Both the position numbers and the translations under genes were made by a program. Shown one piece after another: positions 1 through 38,258 of a DNA stretch of 64,000 bases (position 1 is the stretch's first letter; each line of letters opens with the position of its first letter). Location of the stretch: contig JAKAKZ010000001.1 in the NCBI GenBank assembly GCA_021824285.1, forward strand, positions 4,096 to 68,095, given 5' to 3'. Origin of the DNA: a bacterium. Lineage in GTDB: Bacteria; Patescibacteriota; Patescibacteriia; SG8-24. The notes beneath the pieces were generated by a model. That model was not told the DNA's origin. It did not search any database and saw only the letters and a list, made by a program, of their open reading frames with translations.

Positions 1-36
1 CATTGAAGATAATTCCTAAGATTACGGCAAGCGTTT

Positions 37-2481: not shown

Positions 2482-2486
2482 ATTAC

Positions 2487-5447
2487 TTAATGGTTCTCAA
2501 AGCCGTTCTTAATGCCCGCACGGATCAATCCTTCGGTCTCGTGAATGTCCTGCACCTCAAGAAACGCCCACTTGCCGAACCCGCCATGGTTATTGACGGA
2601 TGGAACCCAAAGCTCACGAGCGGTCTTGGTCTTCAACGACTTCTTGTCATCCTTCTTTCCGGTCACCTCAATAAGCAGATTCAATGGCTCTTTCCCGCCC
2701 ACGTCGAGTCGCACGATGAAGTCCGGGATGTAGGCCCGCTCGATGCCCTTGTGCTCATACGGAATGGTGAACCCGAGGTTCTGGTTCTTCACGTAGGAAA
2801 TGACCTCCGGCATCATCTCAAGCTTCTTGGCGACCCCCTGCTCCCATTCTATGGTGTCCGCGACCACGTAATTCACATGGCTTTTGACGGTATCACTGAC
2901 TGGTTTCACCGTGAGGAAATCCACATGACGGGTCGATCCGACCTTATCGAACTGCGCCAGCACGGGCAGCACCTTCCGCTTGCCCTCCTGCGTAATGTTC
3001 TCCTGTACAATCGCTTGTTGGATCTTCGTGAGTGCACCGGCGTAGTATTCCCCAATCGTGAGGTAACCGATGACCATGCGGTCCTTTAGTTTGACCTGGG
3101 TTTTGACGTATTCCTCGACTATTTTCCTCAACTGAGGGAAAAGCCAATACTTGGAATCGCCCTCGGCGTCCGTGTAATACCTTCGAAGCAGCCCTTCTGT
3201 CAAACGCGTGACGACTTCGCCCTCGCGGCGCTCCTTGATTTTCTCAAGGCTCTCTACGACCTCCTCGCCGATGGCCCCTTCGCTGCGGACCTCGGTAGGC
3301 TCGTTCTCAATGACCGTCCGAGACTCTTCGGTGAACGTCGCTCCGAGCTTCTTCTCGTCAATCTCGTAACGGTATCCCTCGACGCGCGGGAAGGAAATCT
3401 CGTACTGCTCCCCCCGGTCGTCAAGGGAATGCACTCGATAGATGACCTTCGGTGGCTTCGGCTTGACGTCCCCGGTCGGGCGCAAGAAGCTGAACGGCAC
3501 CCCGTAGACTTCGGCGTATTCGGGCGAGAGCAGGCCGTTCTCCTCGACGTCATAGTCGACGCGCCGCAGGGCACGGCCGACCACCTGCTCGCAGAGCAGT
3601 TGCGTGGTGAAGGCCCGGATGCCCAGCACATGCGTGACGGTGTTCACGTCCCAACCCTCGGTGAGCATGGAGACGCTGACCACACACTTGATGTTCTCAC
3701 CGAGTTTGCCGGGCTTGCCGACGGTGTTCATGACCTCACGGAGGATTTCCTCGTTGCTCGGCTCGTCGCGACCTGCGTAACGGCGCATGTATTCCTTCTT
3801 AAAATCGTCGACCTCGGACGCGAAGATCCGGATGAACTCGTCATCGATCTTTTCGCCGCTCTCGAGCTGGGCGCTGTCGATGATGAGCGTGTTGGCCTTC
3901 TTGAGCATCTCGTGGCCGTCCTCATTGCGGAAAATGTCGAGGTTGCCCTTTTCGAGCCGGATCGCGCCGGTCGGCGTCTCGCGTTCATATCCGGCAATCC
4001 ACTTGTAGACCATCTCGGAAACAGTGGTGTTGTTGCAGACCACGATCATGACCGGCGGCATGACGGCGGGATTTTTCGTTTTCTCTTCGGCGTATCGGGC
4101 GTAATACTTTTCGTAGTTGCCGTAGAGCGAAAGGAGCGCCTCGTGGAGCTTGGTCGGGAGACTGATCTGCTCCTTGTCGAGGTTGTAACCGCCTGTTTTC
4201 TTGCCCTTTTTCGGGAGCTCGTCGCGCACGTGCAGCCAAAGATTCCTGAACTCCGGTTCATCCGTGATCGCGTCGGATTCGACCGGCAGACGCGGGATTT
4301 TGACGATCCCGCATTCGAGCGCGTCGAGGAGCGAAAAGTCGGAAACGACCCACGGGAACAGCTCGCCTTCCTGATAGCCGGAGCCGCTCAAGAAGTACGG
4401 CGTCGCCGACAGGTCGATGACGGCGTTGACGTCCATCTTTTCGGCAAGCGCCTTGACGCCGCTGATCCAGACCTTGGCATTCTTGTTGTTCTCGTCGGCC
4501 TCCTTCCTCTCCTCCACGGCCAGCTTCTCCTCAGTCGGCTTCTGCTGATAGCAGTGGTGCGCTTCATCATTGATTACTAGCACGCGCTTCTTGTTGAGCA
4601 GGCTCTTGAAGGCCCGATTCACCATCGCGCTCGGAGACTCCTTGGTCGCCTCTTCCTTCATCAATCCGGCGGCCTTGAGCGTCGCGCCAACCTGAAACCG
4701 CTGGAGCTGGAGACGTTCAAGCTTGTGAAAGTTGATGATCAGGACGTTCGCCTTCTGGAGCAGCTCGAAATCGTGATGCGACACGATGTCCCGCTTGCGG
4801 TAATAGTTTTCGGGACTGTTGGGCTGAAGGACGCTCAGGCGGTCGCGGATGGTGATGCCGGGAGCGATGATGGCGAAAGCGTCCGTGAAACGCGTATCCT
4901 GCGGATACTTGATCTTGTTGATGGTGTTGTAGGCGATGATCATCGCCATCACTACCGTCTTGCCGGAGCCGGTCGCCATCTTGAAGGCGAGGCGGTAAAG
5001 GCCTGGGTTGGCGTCGCCGTTGACCCGCCGCAAATCGTTCACCGCCCAAGCGTCGCCGTTCTTCTCGGCGACCTCGTTGATCCACATCAAGGTCTCAAGA
5101 GCCTCGACTTGGCAGAAGAAAAGCTTGTTCTCACGCGTATCGTCCTGCCAATAGGCAAGGAGGTCGCGGGAGGCTTTGGTCAGTCCGGGGTACCCCTTCT
5201 GCCGCCACGTGGCGATGCGGACGCGGATCTTGTTGACGAAGTCGTTCTCCTTCTGGAGCTCGGCACCGTATGCTCCTTCCGCCAAGTTCTGCTCGGCCTG
5301 TTTCTTGGCGGTCTTGGCCTTCGGAACTGGAATATAGAAGGCGCTCGGCCGCCGGCCCTCAACTGTCTGATCGGTAAGACCGCGCTCGTTAGAGCTGAAA
5401 TACCTATCCGGCACCTTATAAGGTGAGTTTAGGACTGGGCTTTCCAT
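2487..5447 (-). CDS. res: Type III restriction enzyme Res subunit (SF2 DEAH helicase with C-terminal PD-(D/E)xK-like nuclease)
   Basis: 986 aa; Walker A ATGSGKTVV, DEAH box VLVINDEAHH, SAT motif; C-terminal IPDFIV...LLIEVTGKKD resembles PD-ExK endonuclease motif; tightly coupled to mod. Confidence 0.8.
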   Translation of the reverse strand: MESPVLNSPYKVPDRYFSSNERGLTDQTVEGRRPSAFYIPVPKAKTAKKQAEQNLAEGAYGAELQKENDFVNKIRVRIATWRQKGYPGLTKASRDLLAYWQDDTRENKLFFCQVEALETLMWINEVAEKNGDAWAVNDLRRVNGDANPGLYRLAFKMATGSGKTVVMAMIIAYNTINKIKYPQDTRFTDAFAIIAPGITIRDRLSVLQPNSPENYYRKRDIVSHHDFELLQKANVLIINFHKLERLQLQRFQVGATLKAAGLMKEEATKESPSAMVNRAFKSLLNKKRVLVINDEAHHCYQQKPTEEKLAVEERKEADENNKNAKVWISGVKALAEKMDVNAVIDLSATPYFLSGSGYQEGELFPWVVSDFSLLDALECGIVKIPRLPVESDAITDEPEFRNLWLHVRDELPKKGKKTGGYNLDKEQISLPTKLHEALLSLYGNYEKYYARYAEEKTKNPAVMPPVMIVVCNNTTVSEMVYKWIAGYERETPTGAIRLEKGNLDIFRNEDGHEMLKKANTLIIDSAQLESGEKIDDEFIRIFASEVDDFKKEYMRRYAGRDEPSNEEILREVMNTVGKPGKLGENIKCVVSVSMLTEGWDVNTVTHVLGIRAFTTQLLCEQVVGRALRRVDYDVEENGLLSPEYAEVYGVPFSFLRPTGDVKPKPPKVIYRVHSLDDRGEQYEISFPRVEGYRYEIDEKKLGATFTEESRTVIENEPTEVRSEGAIGEEVVESLEKIKERREGEVVTRLTEGLLRRYYTDAEGDSKYWLFPQLRKIVEEYVKTQVKLKDRMVIGYLTIGEYYAGALTKIQQAIVQENITQEGKRKVLPVLAQFDKVGSTRHVDFLTVKPVSDTVKSHVNYVVADTIEWEQGVAKKLEMMPEVISYVKNQNLGFTIPYEHKGIERAYIPDFIVRLDVGGKEPLNLLIEVTGKKDDKKSLKTKTARELWVPSVNNHGGFGKWAFLEVQDIHETEGLIRAGIKNGFENH

Positions 5448-5524
5448 GGTGTTTGGCGTGGCGTGAATGGGACTCTAATCTGGATTATTTTATCACAGTT
5501 CCGTTACAATAATATAGTTCACCT

Positions 5525-6199
5525 ATGACAAGTTCCCCCGAGGCGAAAACTGCGGCTGTCCTCCAGCTCATAAACGACCGAATTGTCGTTACTGACAGCG
5601 AAAAAATCGCCGTGTTTGTCGGTGATTTTGTCGATGCCGGAGACAAGATCACGACTGGGGATGCAGCAGCCATCCTGAACCGCCTCCAAAAAAACGGTGC
5701 AATCCGCATACTGGAAATCGGCACTCGGTCCAATTCGGACGGCGGATACACCCTTGAGAATATGCTGCATAAGGGGTTGTTTACTTACCAAGGACCGAGC
5801 TACAACCTCGAGCGTGTCGACCGTAACCGCCTAAATGCCGATAACCTGATTACGTTCCGGGTAGAGCCGAACTTTTTGGAGATTTGCACCACTAGTGACA
5901 GTGCACGCAAGATAATTCTTGCCGGGCAAGGCGTTCGCGAGATGGAAGACCATCTCAAATCGAACCCGATGACGTGGTCCTGCCCAATCGACCGGTCCAA
6001 CGTGGCTCTTCTACTAAAACCGGAGGAATCCATCGCGACCTGGATGGACAAATTCGCTCGTGGCGAATATGGCCACTGCAAAGACCGTCGGCATCCGAAC
6101 CGTTTCTGGATTGAAGACGGCAAAATCCGCTTCGGCACCGTATCAATCCCGGTGACCGAAGCCCTGCCTGTGAAGAAAAAAATTGACGACCACGCATGA
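5525..6199 (+). CDS. hypothetical protein (no recognisable domain), orphan gene between R-M and phage packaging module
   Basis: 224 aa intact ORF preceded by AT-rich promoter-like region (TTACAATAATATAGTT); no motif recognised. Confidence 0.45.
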   Translation: MTSSPEAKTAAVLQLINDRIVVTDSEKIAVFVGDFVDAGDKITTGDAAAILNRLQKNGAIRILEIGTRSNSDGGYTLENMLHKGLFTYQGPSYNLERVDRNRLNADNLITFRVEPNFLEICTTSDSARKIILAGQGVREMEDHLKSNPMTWSCPIDRSNVALLLKPEESIATWMDKFARGEYGHCKDRRHPNRFWIEDGKIRFGTVSIPVTEALPVKKKIDDHA

Positions 6200-6443
6200 G
6201 ACCGTTATAATGTCTTTGAACATTGAAAGCTAACCTTCGATTCTGGCCGGACTTACCTGTATAGGTGAGCGGCCGCGAGTCGGGTTATCGCGCGTCATCG
6301 AACCAGCGGACCTGTGCGCCGCTGAACCGAGAGCCGAGATAACAGAGTATCGGGCGTTCTACGCCGCTGGTATTTTGTTATTTCGGCTTTTGTCGTTATA
6401 GCCAAGCCAGCCACCGAACATCCGGACTGGCTTTTTTGTCTTA

Positions 6444-7796
6444 ATGATTATGTCGATATTTATGAAACCACTCGAATGGCACAACGAAAAACGCAAGGCG
6501 CAGGACATTCTGCCTTGGCCTGGAAATCCTCGTAAACTCACGGACGAACAGGCGGAGCAGCTAAAGAAATCATTGGAAAAATTCAACTTGGTCGAGATTC
6601 CAGCCATCGACACCGATAACCGGCTGATTGCTGGTCACCAGAGGGTCAAAATCCTGCTGGCGTTGGGACGGGGCGGCGAGGAGATCGACGTGCGTGTGCC
6701 GAACCGGAAACTCACCAAGGAAGAGTTCGAGGAATACAACGTGCGCAGCAACCTGACAACCGGGGAATGGGACTTCGACGCGCTTGGCGAACTCGATGAG
6801 ACTTTCCTGTCCGATGTCGGATTTAGCTCCGAAGAGTTGGACCGGATTTTCGGCGAGGACGAAACGCCTGATGTCTTCGACCTTCAGAAGGAACTGAAAA
6901 AACTGGACATCAAGGAGGTCGAGATCAAGAAGGGCGATGTGTGGGCGCTCGGCGAGAGCCAAATGATGTGCGGCGACTCGACTGTCGAGGCGGATTTCCA
7001 GAAGCTCATGGGCGGCGAAAAGGCCGACATGTGTTTAACCGACCCGCCGTACATCCTGGACTACCTGCACGGGAAGACCCGGCATGGCAAGGCGACGGAG
7101 GGGTTCGGATACAAGCGCGACCGCCGGTACCTCGAGACGGAGTCCCTGCCGGACAACTTCACCGAGCTCTGGATGAGCAACGTCGCGGCGGCGGCGAAGC
7201 CGGACTTCTCCATCATCGTGTACGAGAACTGGAAGAACATCCGGACAATCTGGGGCGAGATGGAGAAGCGCTGGAAGGTGAAGAACATGATCGTCTGGCA
7301 CCTAGAGAACCGGCATCAGGGCTTCTCATCCAAGTACCGCTTCTTCAACAAGCACGACATCGCGATGGTGGGAGCGTCTGGCGACGTGCCGTACAACCAC
7401 GACGCGGAGGAGGCTCCGCTCCAGGAGGAGTACGAGACGGCCCTCTACGCCATAAGCGGCAAGCCGAACTGGGAGAAGTACGAGAAGGGCAAGAAAAACT
7501 GCCCGACCGACTTCATCGAGTTCCGCGCCTCCGACGCGAAGCATTCCGGCCAAGGCGTCGTCTTCGGGACGAAGCCGACCGAGATCCTGGTCCCCTACGT
7601 CAAGGTCCTCACGAGGCGCGGCGACCTGATCGTCGAGCCGTTCGGCGGCAGCGGAAGCACCCTGATGGCCGCGACCAAGATGAAGCGGCGCTGCTTCCTG
7701 ATGGAGAAGAGCCCGGTGTACGCCGAGGTCATCCGGAAACGCTGGGAGAAGCTCACCGGCCTCAAGGCCGAACGCGTCGCCTATGCCGGCCGATAA
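6444..7796 (+). CDS. ParB-like nuclease domain / DNA methyltransferase fusion (phage-type DNA MTase)
   Basis: N-terminal ParB/Srx motif (IPAIDTDNRLIAGHQRVKIL); C-terminal MTase motifs TDPPYILDY and VEPFGGSGST; likely true start at MKPLEWH (about 6462); overlaps terminase small subunit gene. Confidence 0.8.
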   Translation: MIMSIFMKPLEWHNEKRKAQDILPWPGNPRKLTDEQAEQLKKSLEKFNLVEIPAIDTDNRLIAGHQRVKILLALGRGGEEIDVRVPNRKLTKEEFEEYNVRSNLTTGEWDFDALGELDETFLSDVGFSSEELDRIFGEDETPDVFDLQKELKKLDIKEVEIKKGDVWALGESQMMCGDSTVEADFQKLMGGEKADMCLTDPPYILDYLHGKTRHGKATEGFGYKRDRRYLETESLPDNFTELWMSNVAAAAKPDFSIIVYENWKNIRTIWGEMEKRWKVKNMIVWHLENRHQGFSSKYRFFNKHDIAMVGASGDVPYNHDAEEAPLQEEYETALYAISGKPNWEKYEKGKKNCPTDFIEFRASDAKHSGQGVVFGTKPTEILVPYVKVLTRRGDLIVEPFGGSGSTLMAATKMKRRCFLMEKSPVYAEVIRKRWEKLTGLKAERVAYAGR

Positions 7797-8259
7797 GCGC
7801 GGCGTCGTCGAGATCCGCCAGGACAAGCAGAAGGAGGTGCTGGTCGAGGAGCTGCGGAAGCGACCGATCGTCCAGAGCGCCTGCCAGAAGGTCGGCATCG
7901 GCCGGGCCTCGTACTACCGCTGGCGCAAGGAGGACCCCGGCTTCGCGGCGGCGGTCGACGAGGCGGTCGAGTCCGGAGTCGGCCTCGTGAACGACGTGGC
8001 GGAGACCCAGCTCATGACGGCCATCCGCGAAGGGAACATGACCGCCGTCGTCTTCTGGCTGAAGCACCACCACCGCTCGTACGCGACGCGAGTCGAGCTG
8101 TCGATGCCGGAAAAGCGGCCGGAGCTCGACCTCACGCCCGAACAGGCCGAACTGATCAGGAAGTCCGTCGCGATGCTCTCGACCGAGCCGGACTCCCCTG
8201 CCCCCGCCTCGGCCGCAGACGCCACGCAAGCGCCGACACCTAAGCCCGTAACCAAATGA
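7783..8259 (+). CDS. phage terminase small subunit (HTH DNA-binding)
   Basis: 158 aa, HTH-like segment IGRASYYRWRKEDPGF; sits immediately upstream of large terminase in canonical order; Pro/Ala-rich tail. Confidence 0.6.
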   Translation: MPADKRGVVEIRQDKQKEVLVEELRKRPIVQSACQKVGIGRASYYRWRKEDPGFAAAVDEAVESGVGLVNDVAETQLMTAIREGNMTAVVFWLKHHHRSYATRVELSMPEKRPELDLTPEQAELIRKSVAMLSTEPDSPAPASAADATQAPTPKPVTK

Positions 8260-8263
8260 ACAC

Positions 8264-9754
8264 ATGGAAAACAAAAGACCCGAATCGTTCGACGAAACGA
8301 TCGCCAGGCTCAAGACGGACCGCGACTTCCGCATCCGGCTCACGGCATTCAGCCATCAATGGTTCTTCATGACCTACTTCCGGGACCACGTCACCTATCC
8401 GCTCGCCGACCTCCACCGCGAGATCTTCCGGATGACGCAGGACCCTCCCACGCCGCTCATCACGGTCGTCGCCTTCCGCTCGTCTGGGAAGTCGACGGTG
8501 CTCTCCCTCTCCTACCCCATCTGGGCGGCGCTGTCCGGACGGAAGAAGTTCATCCTCATCGTGAGCAAGACGGAATCCCAGGTGAAGCAGATAATGTACA
8601 ACATCAAGGCGGAGCTCGAGGGGAACCAGCAGCTGATATCGGACTTCGGGCCGTTCAACACGGGCGACGTCTGGAACGAGCTGTCCCTCGTCCTGCCGCA
8701 GCACGCCGTCCGCATCGTCGGCGTCTCCGCCGAGCATTCCCTGCGCGGCCTCAAGCACCGCTCGCACCGGCCCGACCTCGTCATCATCGACGACGTGGAG
8801 GACATGGAGTCGGTGCGATCCGGCGAGGTCCGCGACAAGCGCTACCGATGGCTGAAGTCGGAGGTCATCCCGGCGGGCGGCGAGTCCTGCCAAATCTGGG
8901 TCGTGGGGAACCTCCTCCACGAGGACTCGCTCGTCTCGCGGCTCCGGAGCGAGATCGAGAACAGGGAGATCGTGGGCACGTACCGGGAGTACCCGATCGT
9001 CGTCGGCGGGGTGCCGACGTGGCCGGGCCGGTTCCCGAGCGCCGCGGCGGTCGAGGAGCTGCGCATGAAGATCGGCGACGACAGGGCGTTCAAGCGGGAA
9101 TACCTCCTGCAGATCACGCCGGAGGCGGACCAGGTGGTCGACCAGAGCTGGCTCCGCTACTACGACAAGCTGCCGGACGCGGACGGGAAACGCCCGGGAG
9201 ACGGGTGGGAGCTCGACTTCGTCGCGACCGGCGTCGACCCGGCCATCTCGCTGAGGGAATCGGCCGACTTCACCGCCATGGTGTCGGCGGCCGTCTACAG
9301 CCGGATCAGGAGGGACAACCTGGGCAACCACTTCTACACCGACCACCACATCTATATCCTGCCGGTCGTCACGAACGCGCACCTGTCGGTAAACGGCATC
9401 ATCGAGAGGGCGAAAGTCACGGCGCAGATCTGCGCGCGGCCGGGCCACACGCACCGGTTCTTCGTCGAGGACGTCGCCTTCCAGAAGGCGCTGATCGACA
9501 CGATGCACGGCGCGAACCTGTACGTAAAAGGAGTGAAGACCGACGGGATGGACAAGCGGTCGCGCCTGATGATTGCCGCGCGCGGGATGGAGACCGGCAA
9601 GGTGTTCTTCCCGCGCACCGGGGCGGAGGAAGTCATCCGGCAGATCGTCGGATTCGGCGCGGAACGGCACGACGACCTCGCCGACGCCTTCTCGACCCTC
9701 GTCCGGCAGGCGGACTATACCGCCACCCACCACCCGAACATATACGTCTTCTGA
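8264..9754 (+). CDS. phage terminase large subunit (ATPase + nuclease)
   Basis: 496 aa; Walker A VVAFRSSGKSTVLS, Walker B-like DLVIIDDVEDME, C-terminal acidic RNaseH-like nuclease region. Confidence 0.8.
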   Translation: MENKRPESFDETIARLKTDRDFRIRLTAFSHQWFFMTYFRDHVTYPLADLHREIFRMTQDPPTPLITVVAFRSSGKSTVLSLSYPIWAALSGRKKFILIVSKTESQVKQIMYNIKAELEGNQQLISDFGPFNTGDVWNELSLVLPQHAVRIVGVSAEHSLRGLKHRSHRPDLVIIDDVEDMESVRSGEVRDKRYRWLKSEVIPAGGESCQIWVVGNLLHEDSLVSRLRSEIENREIVGTYREYPIVVGGVPTWPGRFPSAAAVEELRMKIGDDRAFKREYLLQITPEADQVVDQSWLRYYDKLPDADGKRPGDGWELDFVATGVDPAISLRESADFTAMVSAAVYSRIRRDNLGNHFYTDHHIYILPVVTNAHLSVNGIIERAKVTAQICARPGHTHRFFVEDVAFQKALIDTMHGANLYVKGVKTDGMDKRSRLMIAARGMETGKVFFPRTGAEEVIRQIVGFGAERHDDLADAFSTLVRQADYTATHHPNIYVF

Positions 9755-9847
9755 AGGGCTTAAAGGGCGGCCTGGACTGTTCCGGTCGGTGGCGACATTG
9801 ATGTCCTGCATGCCCCGATAAGGGGCTGTAAGGGCAAATTCAAGGCT

Positions 9848-11131
9848 ATGGACCCATCCACCACCGTGCCGGTCCGGTACTGCCTGTACGCTCGGAAATC
9901 TAGCGAACAGGACGAGCGGCAGGCGCTGTCGATCGACGCGCAGATCCAAGAGATAACCGAACTCGCAGTGAGGGAGAAGCTCGAGATCGTCGCCGTCCGC
10001 AAGGAGAGCCATTCCGCGAAGGACTCCGGCGAGCGACCGGAATACAACGGACTCATCACGGACATCCGCACCGGTATCATTAATGGCATCCTCACGTGGG
10101 CGCCTGACCGCCTCAGCCGTAACGGCGGCGACCTAGGATCGCTGGTCGACCTCATGGACCAAGGAAAGCTCGCGGAGATCCGGACACCGAGCCAGCGGTT
10201 CACGAATTCGCCGAACGAGAAGTTCCTGCTCATGATCCTCTGCTCGCAGGCGAAGCTCGAAAACGACAGCAAGGGCGTGAACGTGCGTCGCGGCCTCAAG
10301 GTGAAGGCGCAGATGGGCTGGCGACCGAACATGTCACCTATGGGGTACATCAACACCAAGACAGGCATCAAGGGCGAACAGAAGGTCATCCTAGACCCGA
10401 AGCGCGCGCCGCTCATCAGAGAAATGTTCGAACGTGTGGCGAACCTCGGCCACAGCGGACGGAAGATCAAGGAATGGCTGGACCAGTCCGGCTTTACGAC
10501 GCGCGGCGGCAAGCCAGTGACGCTCAGCAGCATCTTCCTGATGCTCCGAAACCCATACTACTGCGGCAAGTTCGAGTTCCCGAAGGGCGGCGGCAACTGG
10601 TACCGCGTGGCGCACGAGTCGATCGTGACCGAGGGGCTTTTCGAGGACGTCCAGCGGCAACTCTCGCTAGAGAAGAAAAAGACGCCGTGGGGCTCGAAGG
10701 AGTTCGCCTTCACGCGGCTCATGAAGTGCGGGTCGTGCGGCTCCGGCATCACCGCGCAGGAGAAGTTCAAGTCGATGGACGACGGTACGCGCAAGCGCTA
10801 CGTCTACTACCACTGCGGACGGTCGACCGACAAGGAGTGCGGGGAGCCGTATATCCGCGAAGAAGCACTCATCGAACAGCTTATCGCCGTCCTCGACGAC
10901 CTGAAGATTGACCATGCGGTCTCTAAGAAGAAGTTCCAGGAGGAATTCGACCGGAACCGGAAATTTATGGAGTCGATGATGGGGACCCAAGCCATGCCGG
11001 AAGCGCCACGCCTGGACCATAAGAAGTACGTCCGCCACGTCCTGACCAACGGAACGAAAGAAGAGAAGCGCGAGCTTCTCTCTTGCGTAACGTCCGAGCT
11101 TCGCCTCTCCAACAAGGCCATCAGGATCTAG
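9848..11131 (+). CDS. large serine recombinase (resolvase/invertase N-domain + recombinase domain + zinc ribbon)
   Basis: 427 aa; N-terminal YARKSSEQD...LSIDAQ catalytic Ser region, recombinase domain, Cys cluster CGSCGSG...YYHCGRS. Confidence 0.85.
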   Translation: MDPSTTVPVRYCLYARKSSEQDERQALSIDAQIQEITELAVREKLEIVAVRKESHSAKDSGERPEYNGLITDIRTGIINGILTWAPDRLSRNGGDLGSLVDLMDQGKLAEIRTPSQRFTNSPNEKFLLMILCSQAKLENDSKGVNVRRGLKVKAQMGWRPNMSPMGYINTKTGIKGEQKVILDPKRAPLIREMFERVANLGHSGRKIKEWLDQSGFTTRGGKPVTLSSIFLMLRNPYYCGKFEFPKGGGNWYRVAHESIVTEGLFEDVQRQLSLEKKKTPWGSKEFAFTRLMKCGSCGSGITAQEKFKSMDDGTRKRYVYYHCGRSTDKECGEPYIREEALIEQLIAVLDDLKIDHAVSKKKFQEEFDRNRKFMESMMGTQAMPEAPRLDHKKYVRHVLTNGTKEEKRELLSCVTSELRLSNKAIRI

Positions 11132-11685
11132 GTATCCGGCGCAGGCGGGCTGTTATCGACACGATACCTTCCTTCGCCTTCGGCAATGCCTTTTTTTGCC
11201 TTTTGATAAGCGAACCATGGAACCTGGGGACAGCTCTTGTTCAGCTGTTCTTTTTGCTGCGAGAAGTACTTCAGTTTTTCCGTAAGGACTTCCTCGGAGC
11301 TCTCACGCCAGCAGTCAATGGTTCGAAAAATCCGAACCCTGTTCTGGAGGGCGTCATACTCGTTGCCGGCGTTGAGGTGGGCGTTGGCCCGTTCGTTCGG
11401 GTTCAGGAAAGTCATCACCGCCGTGAAGGCCGCGATTGCGATGGCAAAGATCCCACCAACGGCCTTCAGGTTGTCGGACGTGGTCTGCGACGACGCACTT
11501 ACAATCGAGGACATGATAACTGTCGGCACACCGATCCAAAGATGAAACCGCAACCAAAAATGTGCGGCGGCGAAATGCCCCTTGGATGTGTAAAGGGTCG
11601 CCTCCTCAATCCGCTGCGCTTCCTTGATGATCTCCTCTTTGGTGTGACTTACTGGTTGTTCGGCCGTCGTGAGCTGGTCAGCCAT
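11128..11685 (-). CDS. SLATT-like two-transmembrane effector (putative membrane-disrupting CBASS effector)
   Basis: 185 aa from Met at 11685 (M-A-D-Q...), giving an 8-nt ATGGCTGA overlap with the upstream NTase stop; two predicted TM helices (FWLRFHLWIGVPTVIMSSIV; AVGGIFAIAIAAFTAVMTFL) flanked by helical cytoplasmic segments; AT-richer than core. Confidence 0.5.
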   Translation of the reverse strand: MADQLTTAEQPVSHTKEEIIKEAQRIEEATLYTSKGHFAAAHFWLRFHLWIGVPTVIMSSIVSASSQTTSDNLKAVGGIFAIAIAAFTAVMTFLNPNERANAHLNAGNEYDALQNRVRIFRTIDCWRESSEEVLTEKLKYFSQQKEQLNKSCPQVPWFAYQKAKKGIAEGEGRYRVDNSPPAPDT

Positions 11686-12559
11686 ATGCGGGAAAGTAGT
11701 CTCCAAATATCTTTTGCCAGAACTCCATCGCCTCCTGCGTGCGCCCCCGAGCCTCAAGCTCCTCCGCCTTCAATGCCCGCGTATAAGCCGTCTCGAACTT
11801 ACTCATGGCCTCCATGATCTTCTCGGCGGTGTTGATGTACCGTCCTACGTCACCGCCGTATCCGGCTGGATCCAGATTTTGCTTACTGATCAGCTCCTTG
11901 CCCTTCCCGAAGAAATACCTTACGCCCGACGGAAAATCAGAGATGGTGATGCCTTCAAGAATCTGAAGGGCCAACACCTCGAGGTGGAACGACATGAAAT
12001 GGCGCCCGATGTTCTTATTCCACGCCTTGATCATTTTGATAAGCGGGATCAAATCTCCGTTGTGCGCCACGTTCGAGGCACTCACCAAATCGACATGTTT
12101 CTTGGGATCGGTGGAAATCCAATTCTGGCTTACCGAATCCGGAATTAGGAAACCGCCTCCTTGACGATAAAAACCCGGCACAACGTCGACCACGAAGTCC
12201 GTGAAGGCAACGGTGACAGCCTGCCCGTTCCGACTGATGTCCGGGGTCTTGGTGTAGGTCCGACGCAAGGCCCGCTTCACAAGATCAAGGAGTCCCGCCT
12301 GACCACCGTTTTGCCCATTGTAGTTGTGGTAGTACTTGGCACTGAGGACGACGAAAATATCCACATCAGACTCTTTGAGGGGTCCAATCATGGTGCTCCT
12401 GGAGTACGAGCCGGTCAGAAAGGTGTCCAAAACCTCGAGCTCCGCCTCGACGACCTCGCGGACATTCTTCTGCCGCGTGGCCACCGTTGCCTTCTGGAGC
12501 CCGGTAATCTCGAGATTTTCTTTGAATTTTTGGAACGCGGACTGAATCGTGGTTGCCAT
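11678..12559 (-). CDS. SMODS/CD-NTase-like nucleotidyltransferase (cGAS/DncV-like second-messenger synthase)
   Basis: 293 aa; Pol-beta NTase signature G-S...[DE]hD (LTGSYSRSTMIG...ESDVDIFVV) plus third acidic residue in FTDFVVDVVPGF; size and C-terminal helical domain typical of CD-NTases. Confidence 0.65.
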   Translation of the reverse strand: MATTIQSAFQKFKENLEITGLQKATVATRQKNVREVVEAELEVLDTFLTGSYSRSTMIGPLKESDVDIFVVLSAKYYHNYNGQNGGQAGLLDLVKRALRRTYTKTPDISRNGQAVTVAFTDFVVDVVPGFYRQGGGFLIPDSVSQNWISTDPKKHVDLVSASNVAHNGDLIPLIKMIKAWNKNIGRHFMSFHLEVLALQILEGITISDFPSGVRYFFGKGKELISKQNLDPAGYGGDVGRYINTAEKIMEAMSKFETAYTRALKAEELEARGRTQEAMEFWQKIFGDYFPAYG

Positions 12560-12602
12560 ATTTCCGGCATACCTTACAACTCTGTGGCCGTACGCGCAAT
12601 AC

Positions 12603-12633
12603 GAAACCGCGCGGCCAAAAGCCGCGCGGTTTC
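12603..12633 (-). terminator. GC-rich hairpin (GAAACCGCGCGGCC-aaaa-GCCGCGCGGTTTC), likely terminator after tRNA-Asn
   Basis: perfect 13-bp stem followed by U-rich tract on minus strand; separates tRNA from the NTase gene. Confidence 0.45.
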
Positions 12634-12716
12634 TTCCTTCCTGCCAAGGCTCTCCGGTCCAAGCGAACCACGTCCTACGTGGTCACCTGGTACGGTCTGC
12701 CTGAACTAGAAAGTTG

Positions 12717-12791
12717 TGGCTCCGAGGCTGGGATTCGAACCCAGAACCAATGGATTAACAGTCCACTGCTCTACCGTTGAGCTACCTCGGA
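12717..12791 (-). tRNA. tRNA-Asn (anticodon GUU)
   Basis: Minus-strand cloverleaf: acceptor UCCGAGG/CCUCGGA, T-arm CUGGG-AUUCGAA-CCCAG, anticodon stem GUGGA/UCCAU with loop CUGUUAA (GUU), encoded CCA. Confidence 0.85.
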
Positions 12792-12986
12792 ATACGCAAT
12801 TTTCTGAAAGAATGGCCGATTTAGGCAGAGGCAGATTACGGCAAAGAACGGAAAATGGCAAGTGCTGGGATAATCCACAGCGGCAAACTATCGCTAAGCC
12901 ATAAGGCAAAAAGGCAATAGGCGCGCATGGTCTACTGGCCCCAACCTCGTCTTATGGCCTGACAAACCCAAATATGCGCTACTATT

Positions 12987-14318
12987 ATGGCACCAAACCA
13001 CACCTCTATGCCGACCCACGACCAAAAAACGGCCCGGATCGTCCAGGAACTGCGCGCGCGGCGGAGCACCGCGCCGCTTTCGCTCAAGAAGAGGGCCGTA
13101 TCGCACGAGGTCCCCAAACCGGACGACAAGCGGCACCAGGATGAGAAACTCGACATCAGCGACCTCAATGAGATCCTGGAAATCGACCCGGTGGCGCGCA
13201 CCTGCGTCGCCGAACCGGGCGTGACCTTCGTCGACCTGGTCGCGGCCACGCTGCGGCACGGCCTCGTGCCCTACGTCGTACCGGAGCTCAAGACCATCAC
13301 CATCGGCGGTGCCGTCGCCGGCTGTTCAATCGAGTCGATGTCGTACAAGATCGGCGGCTTCCACGACAACTGCCTCGAGTACGAGGTGATCACGGCGCAG
13401 GGCGACATCCTCCTCTGCACGCCCGACAACGAGAACCGCCTGATCTTCCAGATGGTCCACGGGACTTTCGGCACGCTTGGCATCATCGCGCGGCTGAAAT
13501 TTCGGCTCTGCCCGGCCAAGCCTTACGTTCACGTCACCTATGAGAAGTACGGCGACCTGGAGGCCTACAAGGCGGCCATCTGGCGCCATTACCAGGCCCG
13601 CGACGTGGATTTCATGGACGGCATCATCCATTCGCCGCAGGAACTGGTATTGAGCGTGGCCAACTTCTGCGACCGCGCGCCGTACGCGCACCGCTACGAC
13701 TGGATGCGGGTCTATTACTTGAGTACCAAAACGCGCGAGGAGGATTACCTGCGCACCGCGGATTATTTCTTCCGCTACGACAAGGGCGTGACCAATGTCA
13801 CGCCGCGCTCCTTTTTCGGCCGTCTTTTCTTCGGCAAGCTGCTGGACTCCGACGCCATCCTGCGCCTGGTCACCAGGTTCCGCCGCTTCATCCCGGCCAA
13901 GATGATCCCGGTCACGGTGGACACCTTCATCCCCTTCTCCCGCGTCACGCCGTTCCTGGACTGGTACCGGCGCGAGGTGGGCTTCTTCCCGCTCTGGTGC
14001 GTACCCTACAAGCCGTCGCACCGCTACGAATGGATCGACGACGCCTACCTCAAGGGCGCCGACGACGAGCTGTTCCTGGACCTGGCCATCTACGGGCTGC
14101 CGAAGAATCCCGACAAGGACTACTACCGGCTCCTGGAGGACGAGCTCACAGCCGTCGGTGCCATCAAGACGCTTATCTCGACGAATTACTATTCCGAAGC
14201 CGATTTCTGGAAGATCTGGAACCGGAAGAACTATGAGTCGGTCAAGCGGCGGACCGACCCGGACAACCTCTTCCGCGACCTCTACTCGAAGATGTGCCGC
14301 GCGGCCCGAGGCTTGTGA
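12987..14318 (+). CDS. FAD-binding (PCMH-type) oxidoreductase
   Basis: 443 aa; FAD_binding_4-like region (GGAVAGCSIESMSYKIGGFHDNCLEYEVITAQGDIL...HGTFGTLGIIARLKFRL). Confidence 0.7.
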   Translation: MAPNHTSMPTHDQKTARIVQELRARRSTAPLSLKKRAVSHEVPKPDDKRHQDEKLDISDLNEILEIDPVARTCVAEPGVTFVDLVAATLRHGLVPYVVPELKTITIGGAVAGCSIESMSYKIGGFHDNCLEYEVITAQGDILLCTPDNENRLIFQMVHGTFGTLGIIARLKFRLCPAKPYVHVTYEKYGDLEAYKAAIWRHYQARDVDFMDGIIHSPQELVLSVANFCDRAPYAHRYDWMRVYYLSTKTREEDYLRTADYFFRYDKGVTNVTPRSFFGRLFFGKLLDSDAILRLVTRFRRFIPAKMIPVTVDTFIPFSRVTPFLDWYRREVGFFPLWCVPYKPSHRYEWIDDAYLKGADDELFLDLAIYGLPKNPDKDYYRLLEDELTAVGAIKTLISTNYYSEADFWKIWNRKNYESVKRRTDPDNLFRDLYSKMCRAARGL

Positions 14319-14471
14319 GGTGAATTGATGAGGCGGTCCGGGGCCTGCGGCGTCGGCGGCACCGGCAGGACGGCGCTTATCACCGAAGCGATAGGGCACT
14401 GTGAAGGCGGGCATGAAACCCATTCTGGCAAGGCTTCAGGTGAGACTGATAGTCTGGACTTTATTTTCAAT

Positions 14472-14497
14472 CAAAAAGCCGCCTCGCTGGAGGCGGC
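14472..14497 (-). terminator. intrinsic terminator hairpin GCCGCCTC-gctg-GAGGCGGC + T-run (minus strand)
   Basis: perfect 8-bp GC stem followed by TTTTTGATTG on minus strand, just after CPBP gene stop. Confidence 0.55.
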
Positions 14498-14501
14498 AAG
14501 C

Positions 14502-15062
14502 TCACATCCGCATCAGGGCGGCGAACATGATGGAAAAATTGCAGGCCGCGTGCACGGCGACGCAGCAGAGGTAGCCGATGAACACCGAGGGCCGGCTGTT
14601 CCGCACGAACAGGCGGGCAAGCAGAAAGCCGACCGCTCCCTGCATGAACACGTGGATCAGCGAGCCGTGACCGATGCCGAACAGGAATCCGCAAACGACC
14701 AAGGAGACGATCCGGACTGTCCTACCGTCACCGCGGTCGCGGCGCAAGGCGAGTGACAGCGGCAGAAGCCGGAAAACCGCCTCCTCGATCACCGGCGCGA
14801 AGATGACGCCTTCGCCGAAGGTTATCTGGTGCTTGGCGGCCAAAACGGGGGTCAGCCAGCGTAGGCCGCCCAGCGTGGCCGAGAGCGGGTGCAGATAGTT
14901 TCCGGCGTTGGCGTTGGCTATGGCAACCGCGAAGATCGCGATGGTCCACAGCTGCAGCCAGAAAAATGAGGCGCCGTAGGTCGCGAAAACATCCTTCAGG
15001 CGCTCGCGAAAACTCAACGGAACGATTTCCATCTTCGACCATCCGTTCGGAAAAGAACCCAA
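14502..15062 (-). CDS. CPBP-family intramembrane metalloprotease (CAAX protease/Abi)
   Basis: 186 aa polytopic; motifs EEAVFR and FGIGH characteristic of CPBP family. Confidence 0.7.
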   Translation of the reverse strand: MGSFPNGWSKMEIVPLSFRERLKDVFATYGASFFWLQLWTIAIFAVAIANANAGNYLHPLSATLGGLRWLTPVLAAKHQITFGEGVIFAPVIEEAVFRLLPLSLALRRDRGDGRTVRIVSLVVCGFLFGIGHGSLIHVFMQGAVGFLLARLFVRNSRPSVFIGYLCCVAVHAACNFSIMFAALMRM

Positions 15063-15111
15063 AAAGACCTTAACGGTTACCGAAGGGCATGTAAAGCGGA
15101 GATGGCGATCA

Positions 15112-15158
15112 AACGAAAGCGGGGCCGGCCGCCAGGCACGCCCCCGCTTGGTTTTCGT
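15112..15158 (-). terminator. rho-independent terminator downstream of rpoD
   Basis: AAGCGGGGC...GCCCCCGCTT stem followed by U-tract on minus strand. Confidence 0.5.
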
Positions 15159-15184
15159 TCGCCGGTTTCACGGCGAGCAGGCAA

Positions 15185-16477
15185 TCAATAGTAATCGCGC
15201 AGCCGGGCGATGCCCTGGTGGTGCTGCATCTTTTCGAGCGCCTTCGCCTCGATCTGGCGGATGCGTTCGCGCGTCACGTCGAACTCCTTACCGACTTCCT
15301 CGAGCGTGTGGCTGACGCCGTCGAGCAGGCCGAAGCGCATCTCCAGGATCTTCTGCTCGCGCGGCGAGAGGTCCTTGATGACGTCGCGCACGTAATCGCG
15401 CAGCAGCTGCAGCGCGGCCGCCCGGTCCGGCGAGATGTTCTTGACGTCCTCGATGAAGTCCTCGAGCGTGGAGTCCTCATCGTCGTCGCCGACGGACGTC
15501 TCGAGCGACACGGTCTCCTGCGAGATCTGGATGATGTGGCGGACCTTGTCGATCTCCTCGTTCATCTCCGCGGCGATCTCCTCCGGCAGCGGTTCGCGGC
15601 CGAGGTCCTGGATGAGCTGACGCTCCACCTGCTGGAAGCGGTTGATGGTCTCGACCATATGCACCGGGATGCGGATGGTGCGGGACTGGTCGGCCAAAGC
15701 GCGGGTGATGGCCTGACGGATCCACCAGGTGGCGTAGGTCGAGAACTTGTAGCCCTTGCGGTATTCGAACTTCTTGACCGCGCGGAACAGGCCGATGTTG
15801 CCTTCCTGCACCAGGTCGAGGAGTGACAGCGACTTGCCGACGAACTTCTTGGCGATAGAAACGACGAGACGCAGGTTCGCCTCGATCAGGCGGCGTTCGG
15901 CCTCGCGGTCGTTGCGTTCCTTGCGCTTGGCGAGCGCCACCTCCTCGTCCGGAGTCAAAAGCGGAATCTTGCCGATTTCGCGCAGGTACATCTGGATGTT
16001 GTCGGACGAGATGTCGGTGAGGTCGAAGCGCTTCTTCTCCTTGGTGACGCGGATCTTGTTCAGCGCCTCCTCGCGCTCGGCCTGCCGGCCCAGCAGCCCC
16101 TCCTTCAGTTCCACCACCTGCACGCCGATGCCTTCGAGCTTCTGGAGCAGGTCTTCATAAAGCGGCACATATTCCTCCAGGTCAGCGAATACGGACATGA
16201 TCTCGTTCTCGGTCAGGAAGTTGCGCATCTGCGCGCGCTTAAGGAGACCTTCAATAGCCGATGGGCTCGGCGGTTGCGCCTTGACCCGCGCCTGACGAAG
16301 AGGCTTGGCCGCGCCTTTCTTGGCGGGCTTCTTAGCCCCTTTCTTCGCGACCGGCTTCGTGGAGATTTTCTTGAGCTTGGATTTCTTGGACGCCTCTTTC
16401 TTCACAACCGGCTTCTTGGGCGCCTTTTTCCCCTCAACTTTCTTCGGGGCAAGCTTCTTGACTGGTGTTTTGGCCAT
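15185..16477 (-). CDS. rpoD: RNA polymerase sigma-70 factor RpoD
   Basis: 430 aa; Lys-rich N-terminus, regions 2-4 conserved ([51 protein letters not shown]...[16 protein letters not shown]); downstream of dnaG as in MMS operon. Confidence 0.9.
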
Positions 16478-16544
16478 AGTTGCGGCGGTTTCCCGCCGTA
16501 ATCAGGGCGCAGAGCGCCTCTACAAAAAACCGTGGACTGGCCTA

Positions 16545-18371
16545 TCACTGGAGCAGGCCGTCCAACTGGCGTTGAATTTCCTGGATGCCCGCCTGGTCGC
16601 CGGCCTTTTCGGCCTGGGCCATTTCCTGGCGAAGCTCTTTCTTCCGGCGGTCGATGCGGAGTTTCTGTAGTTCTCCGATCAATCGGTCGAGCGCGTCCTT
16701 CCGCCTCTCGGGCGCCAATTCGCCGAACTCCATTTCAGCGCGGAGTTCTAGGGTGGCGACCAGCTGTGCGGACTCCGCAGTGGGAGCCGGCACCGGCACG
16801 GACGCGGCTCCTGATGAGCCGCCGTTACGTTTCGCAGTATACGCCAGGACGTATTCCGTGTAAAGCTGGCGATAATTCTCCTCAAACTCCTCCGGCAGGA
16901 CCCGGGAAATGGCCTCTTCCGCGAATTCCGGCCACTTATACAGCATGGCCAGCGTGAATTCGGAGACCACGGCATCGCGGGTCTGGGCTTTGGGGAGCTG
17001 ACGGATGCTAGGACTCGCCTCTACGGCCGCGGCTGGCTCTGCGGCGGTCGCGCGGTGGGGCTGGATACGGGATTTCAGCTGCTGCAGGCGCTCGAAAAGC
17101 AGAGAGTCCGGCGTATCGAACAGCCGTGCCGTCTCCCGGATCCAATGGGCCTGTTCGACCGGCTCTTTCATCTTGGCGATTTCCGCGAGAATCTGGTGCG
17201 AGGCCTCCCGTTTGGCTTCGGGATCGTGGAAATCCGTACGCTCCTTGGCCAGCTCCAGGTACCACTCCATGTAGGGTACGGCAGCGGCCACGGCTTTCGG
17301 CCAAAGTTCCGGATGCTGGCGAACGCAATCGTCTGGATCCTTGCCGGCCTCCGGCGGCAGACGCAGCACCCGGACCGTCAGCTCCTGGAGCACGGCCGCA
17401 TCGATGCCGCGCCGCGCGGCCGCCTCCCCCGCCTTGTCGTTATCGAAGGAAAGCACGACGCGGCTAGTGAAGCGCTTAAGGAGCTTGAGTTGGTCATCCG
17501 TGAGAGCCGTGCCGGAACTGGCGACCACGTTCCTGAAACCGGCCTGCTGGACGGACACTACATCCATGTTGCCCTCCACCACGACCGCCAATCCCTGTTT
17601 ACGGATCTCCTGCTTGGCGCGGTCGAGTCCGAAAAGCAGATGGCTCTTGTTATAGACCAACGTCTGGTTGGTGTTGACGTATTTGGCTTCGTTCTCCGGA
17701 TCCTTGCCGTCTGGACCGGGAATGATCCGACCCGTGAAGCCGACGATATTGCCGTGGACGTCGCGGATGGGGAACATCAACCGGTTGCGGAAGCGGTCAA
17801 AGTGGCCGGTGCCGCGTTCGGACCGAGAGACTAGTCCAGCCTTGAAGAGTTCCTCCTCGCTGAATCCCTTGCGCTTAAGGGCGTTAAGCAGGGCGTCCCA
17901 GGTGTCGGGCGCATAGCCGATAAGCCAGTCCTCGATAGTCTCCGGCTTGAGTGCGCGACGGGTGGCGGCGTAAGCGCGGACTTTCTCGGCCACCGGATGC
18001 TTGAGCAGGACCTCATGCCAAAAGCGCGCGGCCATGCGGTTGGCCTCGAGCAGGCGCTGACGTTCCTCGTTGGCCTGCCGATCCTCTGGCTTGAGCTCTA
18101 CGCCGGCCCGCTTGGCTAGAATGCGCAACGCCTCCGGAAAATCCACGCCTTCGATGCGCTGGATGAAGCCGAAGATGTCGCCGTCCTCGCCGCAGCCAAA
18201 GCAGTGGTAGCGCTGGCGATCGACGTTCACGTAGAACGACGGCGTCTTTTCCCCATGGAACGGGCAGCAGGCACGCCAAGCCGACCCGGCTTTCTTGAGC
18301 GGGACGTGATCGGATACGAGCTGGACGATATCCAACTTGGATTTAATCTCTTCGATGACGCCGGAGGACAT
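16545..18371 (-). CDS. dnaG: DNA primase DnaG
   Basis: 608 aa; zinc-ribbon CCPFHGEKTPSFYV...YHCFGCGEDGD, TOPRIM region. Confidence 0.9.
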   Translation of the reverse strand: MSSGVIEEIKSKLDIVQLVSDHVPLKKAGSAWRACCPFHGEKTPSFYVNVDRQRYHCFGCGEDGDIFGFIQRIEGVDFPEALRILAKRAGVELKPEDRQANEERQRLLEANRMAARFWHEVLLKHPVAEKVRAYAATRRALKPETIEDWLIGYAPDTWDALLNALKRKGFSEEELFKAGLVSRSERGTGHFDRFRNRLMFPIRDVHGNIVGFTGRIIPGPDGKDPENEAKYVNTNQTLVYNKSHLLFGLDRAKQEIRKQGLAVVVEGNMDVVSVQQAGFRNVVASSGTALTDDQLKLLKRFTSRVVLSFDNDKAGEAAARRGIDAAVLQELTVRVLRLPPEAGKDPDDCVRQHPELWPKAVAAAVPYMEWYLELAKERTDFHDPEAKREASHQILAEIAKMKEPVEQAHWIRETARLFDTPDSLLFERLQQLKSRIQPHRATAAEPAAAVEASPSIRQLPKAQTRDAVVSEFTLAMLYKWPEFAEEAISRVLPEEFEENYRQLYTEYVLAYTAKRNGGSSGAASVPVPAPTAESAQLVATLELRAEMEFGELAPERRKDALDRLIGELQKLRIDRRKKELRQEMAQAEKAGDQAGIQEIQRQLDGLLQ

Positions 18372-35308: not shown

Positions 35309-38258
<2,950 letters not shown>

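Follow-up and report, generated by a model that had tools for sequence, protein, structure and literature searches.

Does the pair of overlapping minus-strand genes lying beside a serine recombinase gene in this stretch of Patescibacteriota DNA encode a phage defence system, and if so, of which kind? The window, by which we mean the whole stretch of 64,000 nucleotides (nt) that was analysed (GenBank assembly GCA_021824285.1, contig JAKAKZ010000001.1, positions 4,096 to 68,095; GTDB lineage SG8-24), had been read in a preliminary description as carrying a minimal operon resembling a cyclic oligonucleotide-based antiphage signalling system (CBASS), with a SMODS-type cGAS/DncV-like nucleotidyltransferase (CD-NTase) and a two-transmembrane SLATT-like effector. 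Our analysis makes it very probable that the pair is a type I CBASS operon in its minimal form, a CD-NTase coupled to a SLATT_4 two-transmembrane effector. The features concerned are the following:

11678..12559, minus strand: CD-NTase (SMODS) cyclase gene, 293 amino acids (aa), ATG start, product beginning MATTIQSAF
11128..11685, minus strand: SLATT_4 two-transmembrane effector gene, 185 aa, ATG at 11685, product beginning MADQLTTAE
11678..11685, minus strand: start/stop overlap ATGGCTGA, putative translational coupling junction, 8 nt, read in the sequence

To place the upstream gene product, hereafter the cyclase, protein profile searches were performed. The PADLOC Cyclase model PDLC00823 matched the whole protein (1.8e-104), and the NCBIfam equivalog CBASS_cyclase_b gave 221.3 bits against a cutoff of 200. 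The Pfam SMODS family was matched at 1.9e-24, with 87 bits for a cutoff of 26.5, and DncV-like_NTFase was also among the profile matches, the other Pfam matches being weak, partial and of the generic Pol-beta kind. The Pol-beta arrangement first noticed in this protein, a Gly-Ser followed by [DE]xD and by a third Asp in a DVVP context, corresponds to the predicted catalytic residues G50-S51 (LTGSYS), D65-V-D67 (SDVDIF) and D125 (VVDVVP); G50, S51, D65, D67 and D125, the last within D-V-V-P, are invariant in an alignment of 37 cyclase homologues of 69-75% identity.

The closest solved relative of the cyclase is CdnD of P. aeruginosa (PaCdnD; PDB entries 6p82, 6p8j and 6p8u), found by phmmer at 2e-33 over residues 2-290 with 31% identity, the next-best PDB sequence match being far weaker (1.4e-11). 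The PaCdnD motifs GSYAR, DIDIF and VDAVP line up with GSYSR, VDIF and VDVVP of the cyclase. When an AlphaFold2 model of the cyclase (predicted local distance difference test score, pLDDT, 77.7) was compared with the PDB by Foldseek, PaCdnD was again at the top (6p8u/6p82, E 1e-20, template modelling score 0.75-0.81), followed by CdnC, CdnB, the E. cloacae and Salmonella CdnD enzymes, DncV and CdnE; the top of the list held CD-NTases exclusively, as a cGAS/DncV-like fold would lead one to expect. PaCdnD is the best solved relative by far, and on this match clade D is a candidate placement for the cyclase. On these matches and motifs, the cyclase is a member of the CBASS cyclase (SMODS/CD-NTase) family with its predicted catalytic residues intact.

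The downstream gene product, the effector, matched the PADLOC CBASS '2TM' Effector model PDLC00712 over residues 14-178 (1.5e-63) and the NCBIfam SLATT_4 model (NF033632) with 127.1 bits against a cutoff of 55, and its homologues carry precomputed PF18186 assignments and the NCBI name 'SLATT domain-containing protein'. A chance match is excluded for both proteins because the profile E-values are 1e-104 (cyclase) and 1e-63 (effector). Kyte-Doolittle windows of 19 residues rise above 1.2 in two hydrophobic stretches only, at about residues 43-65 and 69-97, and these coincide with helices 47-66 and 71-94 of an AlphaFold2 model (pLDDT 88.6) that is all helical. In this model, the transmembrane hairpin is continuous with the long helices 14-45 and 96-127, and two more helices follow (131-151 and 157-171); the N- and C-terminal helical parts are presumably cytoplasmic. 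The alignment of effector homologues shows 24 invariant residues, all retained here, and the invariant positions gather at the predicted membrane-cytoplasm interface: G36/H37, W44, F47, H48, G52, P54, T92-F93, N95-P96, N108 and R118. No nucleotide-binding domain is recognisable in the protein. By family, the effector is a SLATT_4 two-transmembrane CBASS effector. The preliminary description, which had expected SMODS/CD-NTase and SLATT profile matches and exactly two transmembrane helices with helical flanks, was therefore right on both proteins.

The two open reading frames (ORFs) overlap by the 8 nt announced beforehand. The cyclase stop codon TGA (11678-11680) is inside ATGGCTGA and the effector ATG starts 5 nt ahead of this stop, the junction sequence being gcatATGGCTGAcc. 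The TATGGNTAA junction is shared by the window copy (L001) and five of the seven related loci that bear the pair, and in the remaining two the effector ATG is found 1-2 nt past the cyclase stop. As judged from these alignments, the start/stop overlap is a conserved feature. It comes about through the C-terminal Tyr-Gly-stop codons of the cyclase, which are conserved and include the start of the effector. The ATG at 11685 agrees with the homologue starts (MD.. or MA.., identical alignment column); the open frame of the effector extends back to a TTG at 11757, and an alternative in-frame TTG 21 nt upstream is possible, which would extend the overlap to 29 nt. A single transcript is predicted to carry both genes, with their translation coupled.

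To assign the CBASS type, the immediate flanks of the operon have to be considered:

9848..11131, plus strand: large serine recombinase/integrase; Pfam Resolvase, Recombinase and Zn_ribbon_recom; phrog_95, 1.3e-68
12560..12716, minus strand: leader between the tRNA-Asn and cyclase genes, strongly structured
12717..12791, minus strand: tRNA-Asn(GTT), found by ARAGORN; Rfam tRNA 74.9 bits; 157 nt upstream of the cyclase gene

The effector and recombinase genes are convergent and their stop codons share 4 nt. The operon is assigned to the two-gene type I because the tRNA-Asn gene 157 nt upstream and the overlapping convergent recombinase gene leave no space for accessory genes, and no PADLOC match to CBASS accessory genes was found among the neighbouring proteins. 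Types II, III and IV were rejected, since Cap2/Cap3, HORMA/TRIP13 or any other accessory genes could not be accommodated. Type I systems mostly combine clade D, E or F cyclases with effectors of two or four transmembrane (TM) helices, and close cyclases adjoin different effectors (bioRxiv 10.1101/2023.05.21.541620). SLATT4 and SLATT6 are named CBASS effector classes, and membrane proteins account for more than 40% of CBASS effectors (PMC12480259). Read in this way from its genes, the operon is a standard type I CBASS operon, one that PADLOC or the NCBI pipeline would call automatically.

At E<=1e-10, more than 2,300 proteins are related to the cyclase, and identity to it is 69-75% throughout the best 120; the names 'CBASS oligonucleotide cyclase' and 'SLATT domain-containing protein' have already been given to some members of the family, among them ones from Paceibacterota and Moraniibacteriota metagenome-assembled genomes (MAGs). 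The species-representative genomes with relatives of 54-74% identity belong to Gastranaerophilales, Paceibacterota, Verrucomicrobia, Chitinophagaceae and Victivallales, as well as to Pseudomonadales, Marinamargulisbacteria, Bradyrhizobium and Cyanobacteria/Obscuribacterales, and this distribution across unrelated phyla indicates horizontal spread. Pair and overlapping junction together are met again in MAGs from many phyla, with identities of 50-75%. The PHROG family phrog_23526 matches the cyclase (3e-66). A search of GenBank phages for cyclase relatives gave one weak partial match and a search of IMG/VR viral contigs with single-protein patterns gave none; because both came up nearly empty, this cyclase subfamily is not shown to be carried by sequenced phages.

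The pairing of cyclase and effector was compared across 13 related genomic loci from several phyla. A SLATT_4 effector of 51-63% identity lies directly downstream of the cyclase in seven of them, a CBASS '4TM' effector (E down to 2e-117) takes its place in four (L006, L012, L013 and L014), and the other two (L004 and L005) have neither a SLATT_4 nor a full-length 4TM effector. The exchange of 2TM and 4TM effectors beside close cyclases matches the effector swapping known for CBASS and would be a further instance of it. One of the 4TM loci, L012 (6001-8818) of Bradyrhizobium japonicum SZCCT0231, has a single 4TM effector preceded by a tandem of two CD-NTase genes; the two enzymes are only 28% identical to each other, yet PDLC00823 is the best PADLOC match for both. 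In L004 and L005 (6001-7860), which come from Verrucomicrobia MAGs, a small PDC-S09-like nucleotidyltransferase gene follows the cyclase gene and the effector is missing, and L005 has in addition a second cyclase upstream, then a 159-aa ORF matching only the C-terminal part of the 4TM effector model. Both look like CBASS loci that have been rearranged or are decaying.

Comparison with named systems places the operon further. The type I systems EcCdnF04-SLATT6 and EcCdnF05-SLATT6 (bioRxiv 10.1101/2023.05.21.541620) are alike in combining a CD-NTase with a small SLATT effector, without accessory genes and on mobile DNA; the present operon, known here from sequence, differs in its SLATT_4 rather than SLATT_6 effector, its CdnD-type rather than clade F cyclase and its Patescibacteria host. 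Cyclase-SLATT6 operons restricted phages at least 10,000-fold in E. coli (bioRxiv 10.1101/2023.05.21.541620). PaCdnD, of P. aeruginosa ATCC 27853, belongs to a type III system and pairs with HORMA2 (title of 6p8u). The operon of the window, in contrast, has no HORMA2 and has a membrane effector. The PaCdnD operon comprises also Trip13 and the NucC nuclease effector, which are likewise absent here. Cap15/S-2TM-beta effectors of CBASS and OptE of Panoptes resemble the SLATT_4 protein as small, presumably membrane-disrupting proteins with two TM helices and a cytoplasmic part taken as the cyclic-nucleotide reader (PMC12657218), but their sensor is a beta-barrel and the SLATT_4 protein is all-helical. 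The SLATT proteins associated with reverse transcriptases (PADLOC RTasSLATT, of the DRT systems) share the same domain superfamily, and the effector matches their model PDLC03811 at 2.7e-12; however, the partner there is a reverse transcriptase and not, as here, a CD-NTase, and this match falls far short of the 1.5e-63 obtained with the 2TM model.

Taking these relationships together, the operon would act as follows. The cyclase would remain silent until a phage-derived cue is present; type I triggers include phage structured RNA (PMC10686824), and escape mutations against type I CBASS map to capsid-assembly proteins (bioRxiv 10.1101/2023.05.21.541620). Using its G50-S51 / D65xD67 / D125 Pol-beta site, it would then turn NTPs into a cyclic di- or trinucleotide. 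Its nearest solved relative, PaCdnD, makes a cyclic trinucleotide. The SLATT_4 protein would bind the nucleotide through its helical cytoplasmic part and would oligomerise or open in the membrane; the membrane potential would collapse and the cell would stop or die before the phage matures, that is, by abortive infection. We infer activation on infection, the product, the reading and binding of the nucleotide by the SLATT protein, pore formation and the defence phenotype by analogy with other CBASS operons.

Several observations weigh against assigning the pair to type I CBASS with this mode of action. The closest solved cyclase, PaCdnD, comes from a type III system in which a HORMA protein is required, and the operon has no such partner. 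The Pfam SLATT_4 model (PF18186) scores the effector at 26.6 bits, 0.4 under its gathering cutoff of 27. No solved structure or fold relative of a SLATT effector was found in the PDB copy searched, and it is for this reason that the pore model is an assumption; the literature searched contained no description of the ligand-binding mode of SLATT effectors, nor of the product, trigger, ligand binding or toxicity for any SLATT_4 effector. Finally, a scan of the minus strand between the tRNA-Asn and cyclase genes with an E. coli-type consensus, which may not be that of the host, returned no sigma-70-like promoter.

There is an outside chance for two departures from the conventional scheme taken together, either a guard or decoy logic with a constitutive CdnD-like cyclase, or ligand reading by SLATT_4 in a mode without solved precedent, for example through the membrane-proximal cluster of invariant residues H37, H48, N95-P96, N108 and R118. 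In an inverted logic of the kind described for Panoptes, the cyclase would be constitutively active, its product would hold the SLATT protein shut, and depletion of that product by a phage sponge or nuclease would release the effector. Panoptes is likewise a two-gene system of synthase and 2TM effector, whose authors leave the sign of regulation open for other 2TM partners (PMC12657218), and the cyclase of the window is minimal, with neither a sensor domain nor a HORMA partner. However, the Panoptes synthase is an mCpol (Cas10-palm) enzyme and its effector an S-2TM-beta protein, unlike SMODS and SLATT (PMC12657218), SMODS-SLATT6 operons were conventional phage-induced type I CBASS in a published screen (bioRxiv 10.1101/2023.05.21.541620), and the cyclase scores above the cutoff of the CBASS_cyclase_b equivalog. 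Neither of the two protein families is that of Panoptes, and we therefore regard this inverted logic as very unlikely. Membership in Panoptes itself was rejected, the SMODS synthase and the all-helical SLATT_4 effector both being outside the Panoptes families.

The DNA to the left of the pair contains phage-type genes and a restriction-modification (R-M) system:

37-2481, minus strand: type III R-M Mod, 814 aa; PADLOC MTase_III PDLC03632, 4.1e-208; Pfam N6_N4_Mtase
2487-5447, minus strand: type III R-M Res, 986 aa; REase_III 1.3e-06 (PADLOC) and Pfam ResIII; weak
5525-6199, plus strand: ORF of 224 aa; without matches to Pfam, PHROG or PADLOC models; relatives absent from the related viral loci
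6444-7796, plus strand: ParB-DNA methylase; phrog_498, 3.3e-71
7783-8259, plus strand: small terminase (TerS); phrog_4044, 6.8e-08, weaker
8264-9754, plus strand: large terminase (TerL); phrog_38, 1.4e-67

The neighbours named in the preliminary description, a serine recombinase, a terminase module and a tRNA gene, are thus all in place. The lower GC that it had attributed to the patch was also found: the cyclase and effector genes have a GC content of 0.54 and a GC at third codon positions (GC3) of 0.67-0.70, compared with 0.61-0.66 and 0.75-0.88 in host genes and an overall GC of 61%. The type III R-M pair, which has the lowest GC of the window, shares this low-GC acquired block with the CBASS operon. 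The composition of the region is a mosaic in which the phage-type genes are host-like (GC3 0.83-0.93) and Mod and the 224-aa ORF are at 0.57-0.61, and it therefore suggests that the defence genes arrived later than the backbone.

Relatives of the recombinase with 46-55% identity were found in 12 IMG/VR loci (L018-L029). The upstream order ParB-methylase, TerS, TerL is common to all 12, one of them being without a detectable TerL, and the stretch between TerL and the recombinase (0.1-6 kb) and the stretch after the recombinase vary from locus to locus. Within these variable stretches, defence models matched a type IIG R-M enzyme together with an HKD/Snf2 helicase in L028, a reverse transcriptase in L024 and PDC-S14 in L021, and PDC-S11 was matched strongly in L025 and weakly in L022. 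In the window, the slot after the recombinase is occupied by the CBASS pair. This arrangement supports the view that the pair is exchangeable defence cargo of a phage-derived mobile element, as far as gene order and family matches can tell, and the element, with its ParB-methylase, TerS, TerL and large serine recombinase, seems to represent a family not described before, in which this region is a defence hotspot. The P2/P4 hotspots of temperate phages and satellites (PMC9122126) are alike in principle, having a conserved mobile backbone with a variable slot for different defence genes; the backbone here is instead ParB-methylase/TerS/TerL/large serine recombinase, and the slot can be to either side of the recombinase. 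With the GC3 gap, the relatives of about 70% identity across unrelated phyla and the position in a cargo slot, the horizontally acquired setting proposed at the outset is upheld.

The TerL relatives came to light through the recombinase loci, a pattern scan of IMG/VR for TerL having returned none. Two of the 12 loci, L028 and L029, are on the same viral contig (IMGVR_UViG_3300009873_002614, 37,138 bp), where two different copies of the backbone stand about 18 kb apart; they may be tandem elements or small satellite-like units.

On the other side of the operon, the tRNA-Asn gene is the boundary between the acquired block and core genes. To its right are genes for an FAD-binding protein, a CAAX protease, RpoD and DnaG, and farther on QueA, Tgt, a GatA-like amidase, LigA, PilB and RecJ. 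The best named relatives of RpoD, 75-83% identical, are from Parcubacteria, Uhrbacteria and the 'Patescibacteria group', and the host is therefore a bacterium of the candidate phyla radiation (CPR). Identical cyclase and effector proteins are present in the MAG GCA_027346945.1. When the stretch 12987-18371 was compared with two related Patescibacteria genomes (L016 and L017), the DnaG-RpoD-CAAX synteny was kept and everything beyond the CAAX gene differed; the tRNA-Asn side is therefore, as far as these alignments go, a variable region in the lineage. Both genomes diverge right after the CAAX gene and neither offers a clean empty site. No direct repeat of the 3' part of the tRNA was found within 1-13200, the left end of the element runs off the window, and a search for the Mod gene elsewhere yielded only a contig of 7.9 kb.

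The leader between the tRNA-Asn and cyclase genes has a fold energy of -75.2 kcal/mol (z = -5.65 versus shuffles) and holds, at about 12600-12635, a G+C-rich hairpin of 14 perfectly paired bp, GAAACCGCGCGGCC...GGCCGCGCGGUUUC, that no U-tract follows; the leader may be a tRNA terminator, an element border or recombination site, or a regulator. Among the host genes, the NAD-dependent DNA ligase (35309-37792, minus strand, 827 aa) has its adenylation domain matched in two stretches, which suggests an insertion of about 150 residues, for example an intein or a lineage-specific insert. The ORFs at 48438-52385 (minus strand, 1,315 aa) and 28055-29584 (minus strand, 509 aa) have no Pfam match at 1e-5.

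Of a phage, the window shows only a part, the genes for methylase, TerS, TerL and integrase, while portal and capsid genes are not seen in it, no promoter-like site precedes the cyclase gene, and two cyclase relatives (L004 and L005) have lost their effector, all of which would fit a silent or decayed passenger, that is, intact genes no longer expressed or active and carried along with a degraded prophage. Against this, both ORFs are full-length with respect to their profiles (cyclase residues 1-293 on 285 profile positions, effector residues 14-178 on 171), the catalytic residues, the invariant effector residues and the coupling junction are all intact, and the promoter scan covered the E. 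coli-type consensus alone; we hold the passenger explanation to be highly improbable. The proximity to the recombinase on a mobile element raises the further thought of an addiction or stabilisation module, in which a toxic membrane protein and its controlling enzyme could stabilise the element, or of a physiological second-messenger circuit that controls a membrane function, serving the element instead of phage defence. This is very unlikely when set against a CD-NTase/SLATT family that is catalogued and tested as defence, a type III R-M system beside the pair and other defence candidates in the slots of related elements. That the cyclase is an antitoxin- or aminoglycoside-type (MNT) nucleotidyltransferase with an unrelated membrane partner, the outcome that the preliminary description had named as its refutation, can practically be dismissed and was rejected, since its one trace, a Pfam NTP_transf_2 match of 22.2 bits (cutoff 21) over the 47 residues 32-78, is confined to the Pol-beta core common to these enzymes, the models for SMODS and CBASS cyclases match the whole protein with 87-347 bits, no HEPN partner is present, the fold search returned CD-NTases only and the partner is a SLATT_4 protein.

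As to novelty, the preliminary description had suggested that the system may be uncharacterised in this lineage. This stands in so far as CBASS of Patescibacteria is without functional tests, and falls in so far as the family is abundant and already named in Paceibacterota and Moraniibacteriota MAGs; moreover, CPR defensomes have been surveyed in bulk, with a high defence density reported (PMC12259885). The type I CBASS operon described here provides a clean, minimal SMODS-SLATT_4 pair from Patescibacteria (CPR), organisms with tiny genomes and few defence systems per genome. It also marks a cargo slot, beside the serine recombinase of a conserved phage-type backbone, in which new systems could be sought. 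SLATT proteins rank among the commonest effectors of CBASS, and this compact 185-aa member, with its confident model, is a reasonable structural candidate. If true, a guard logic or an unprecedented mode of ligand reading would be new biology for the most abundant class of CBASS effectors, and in an episymbiotic Patescibacteria host.

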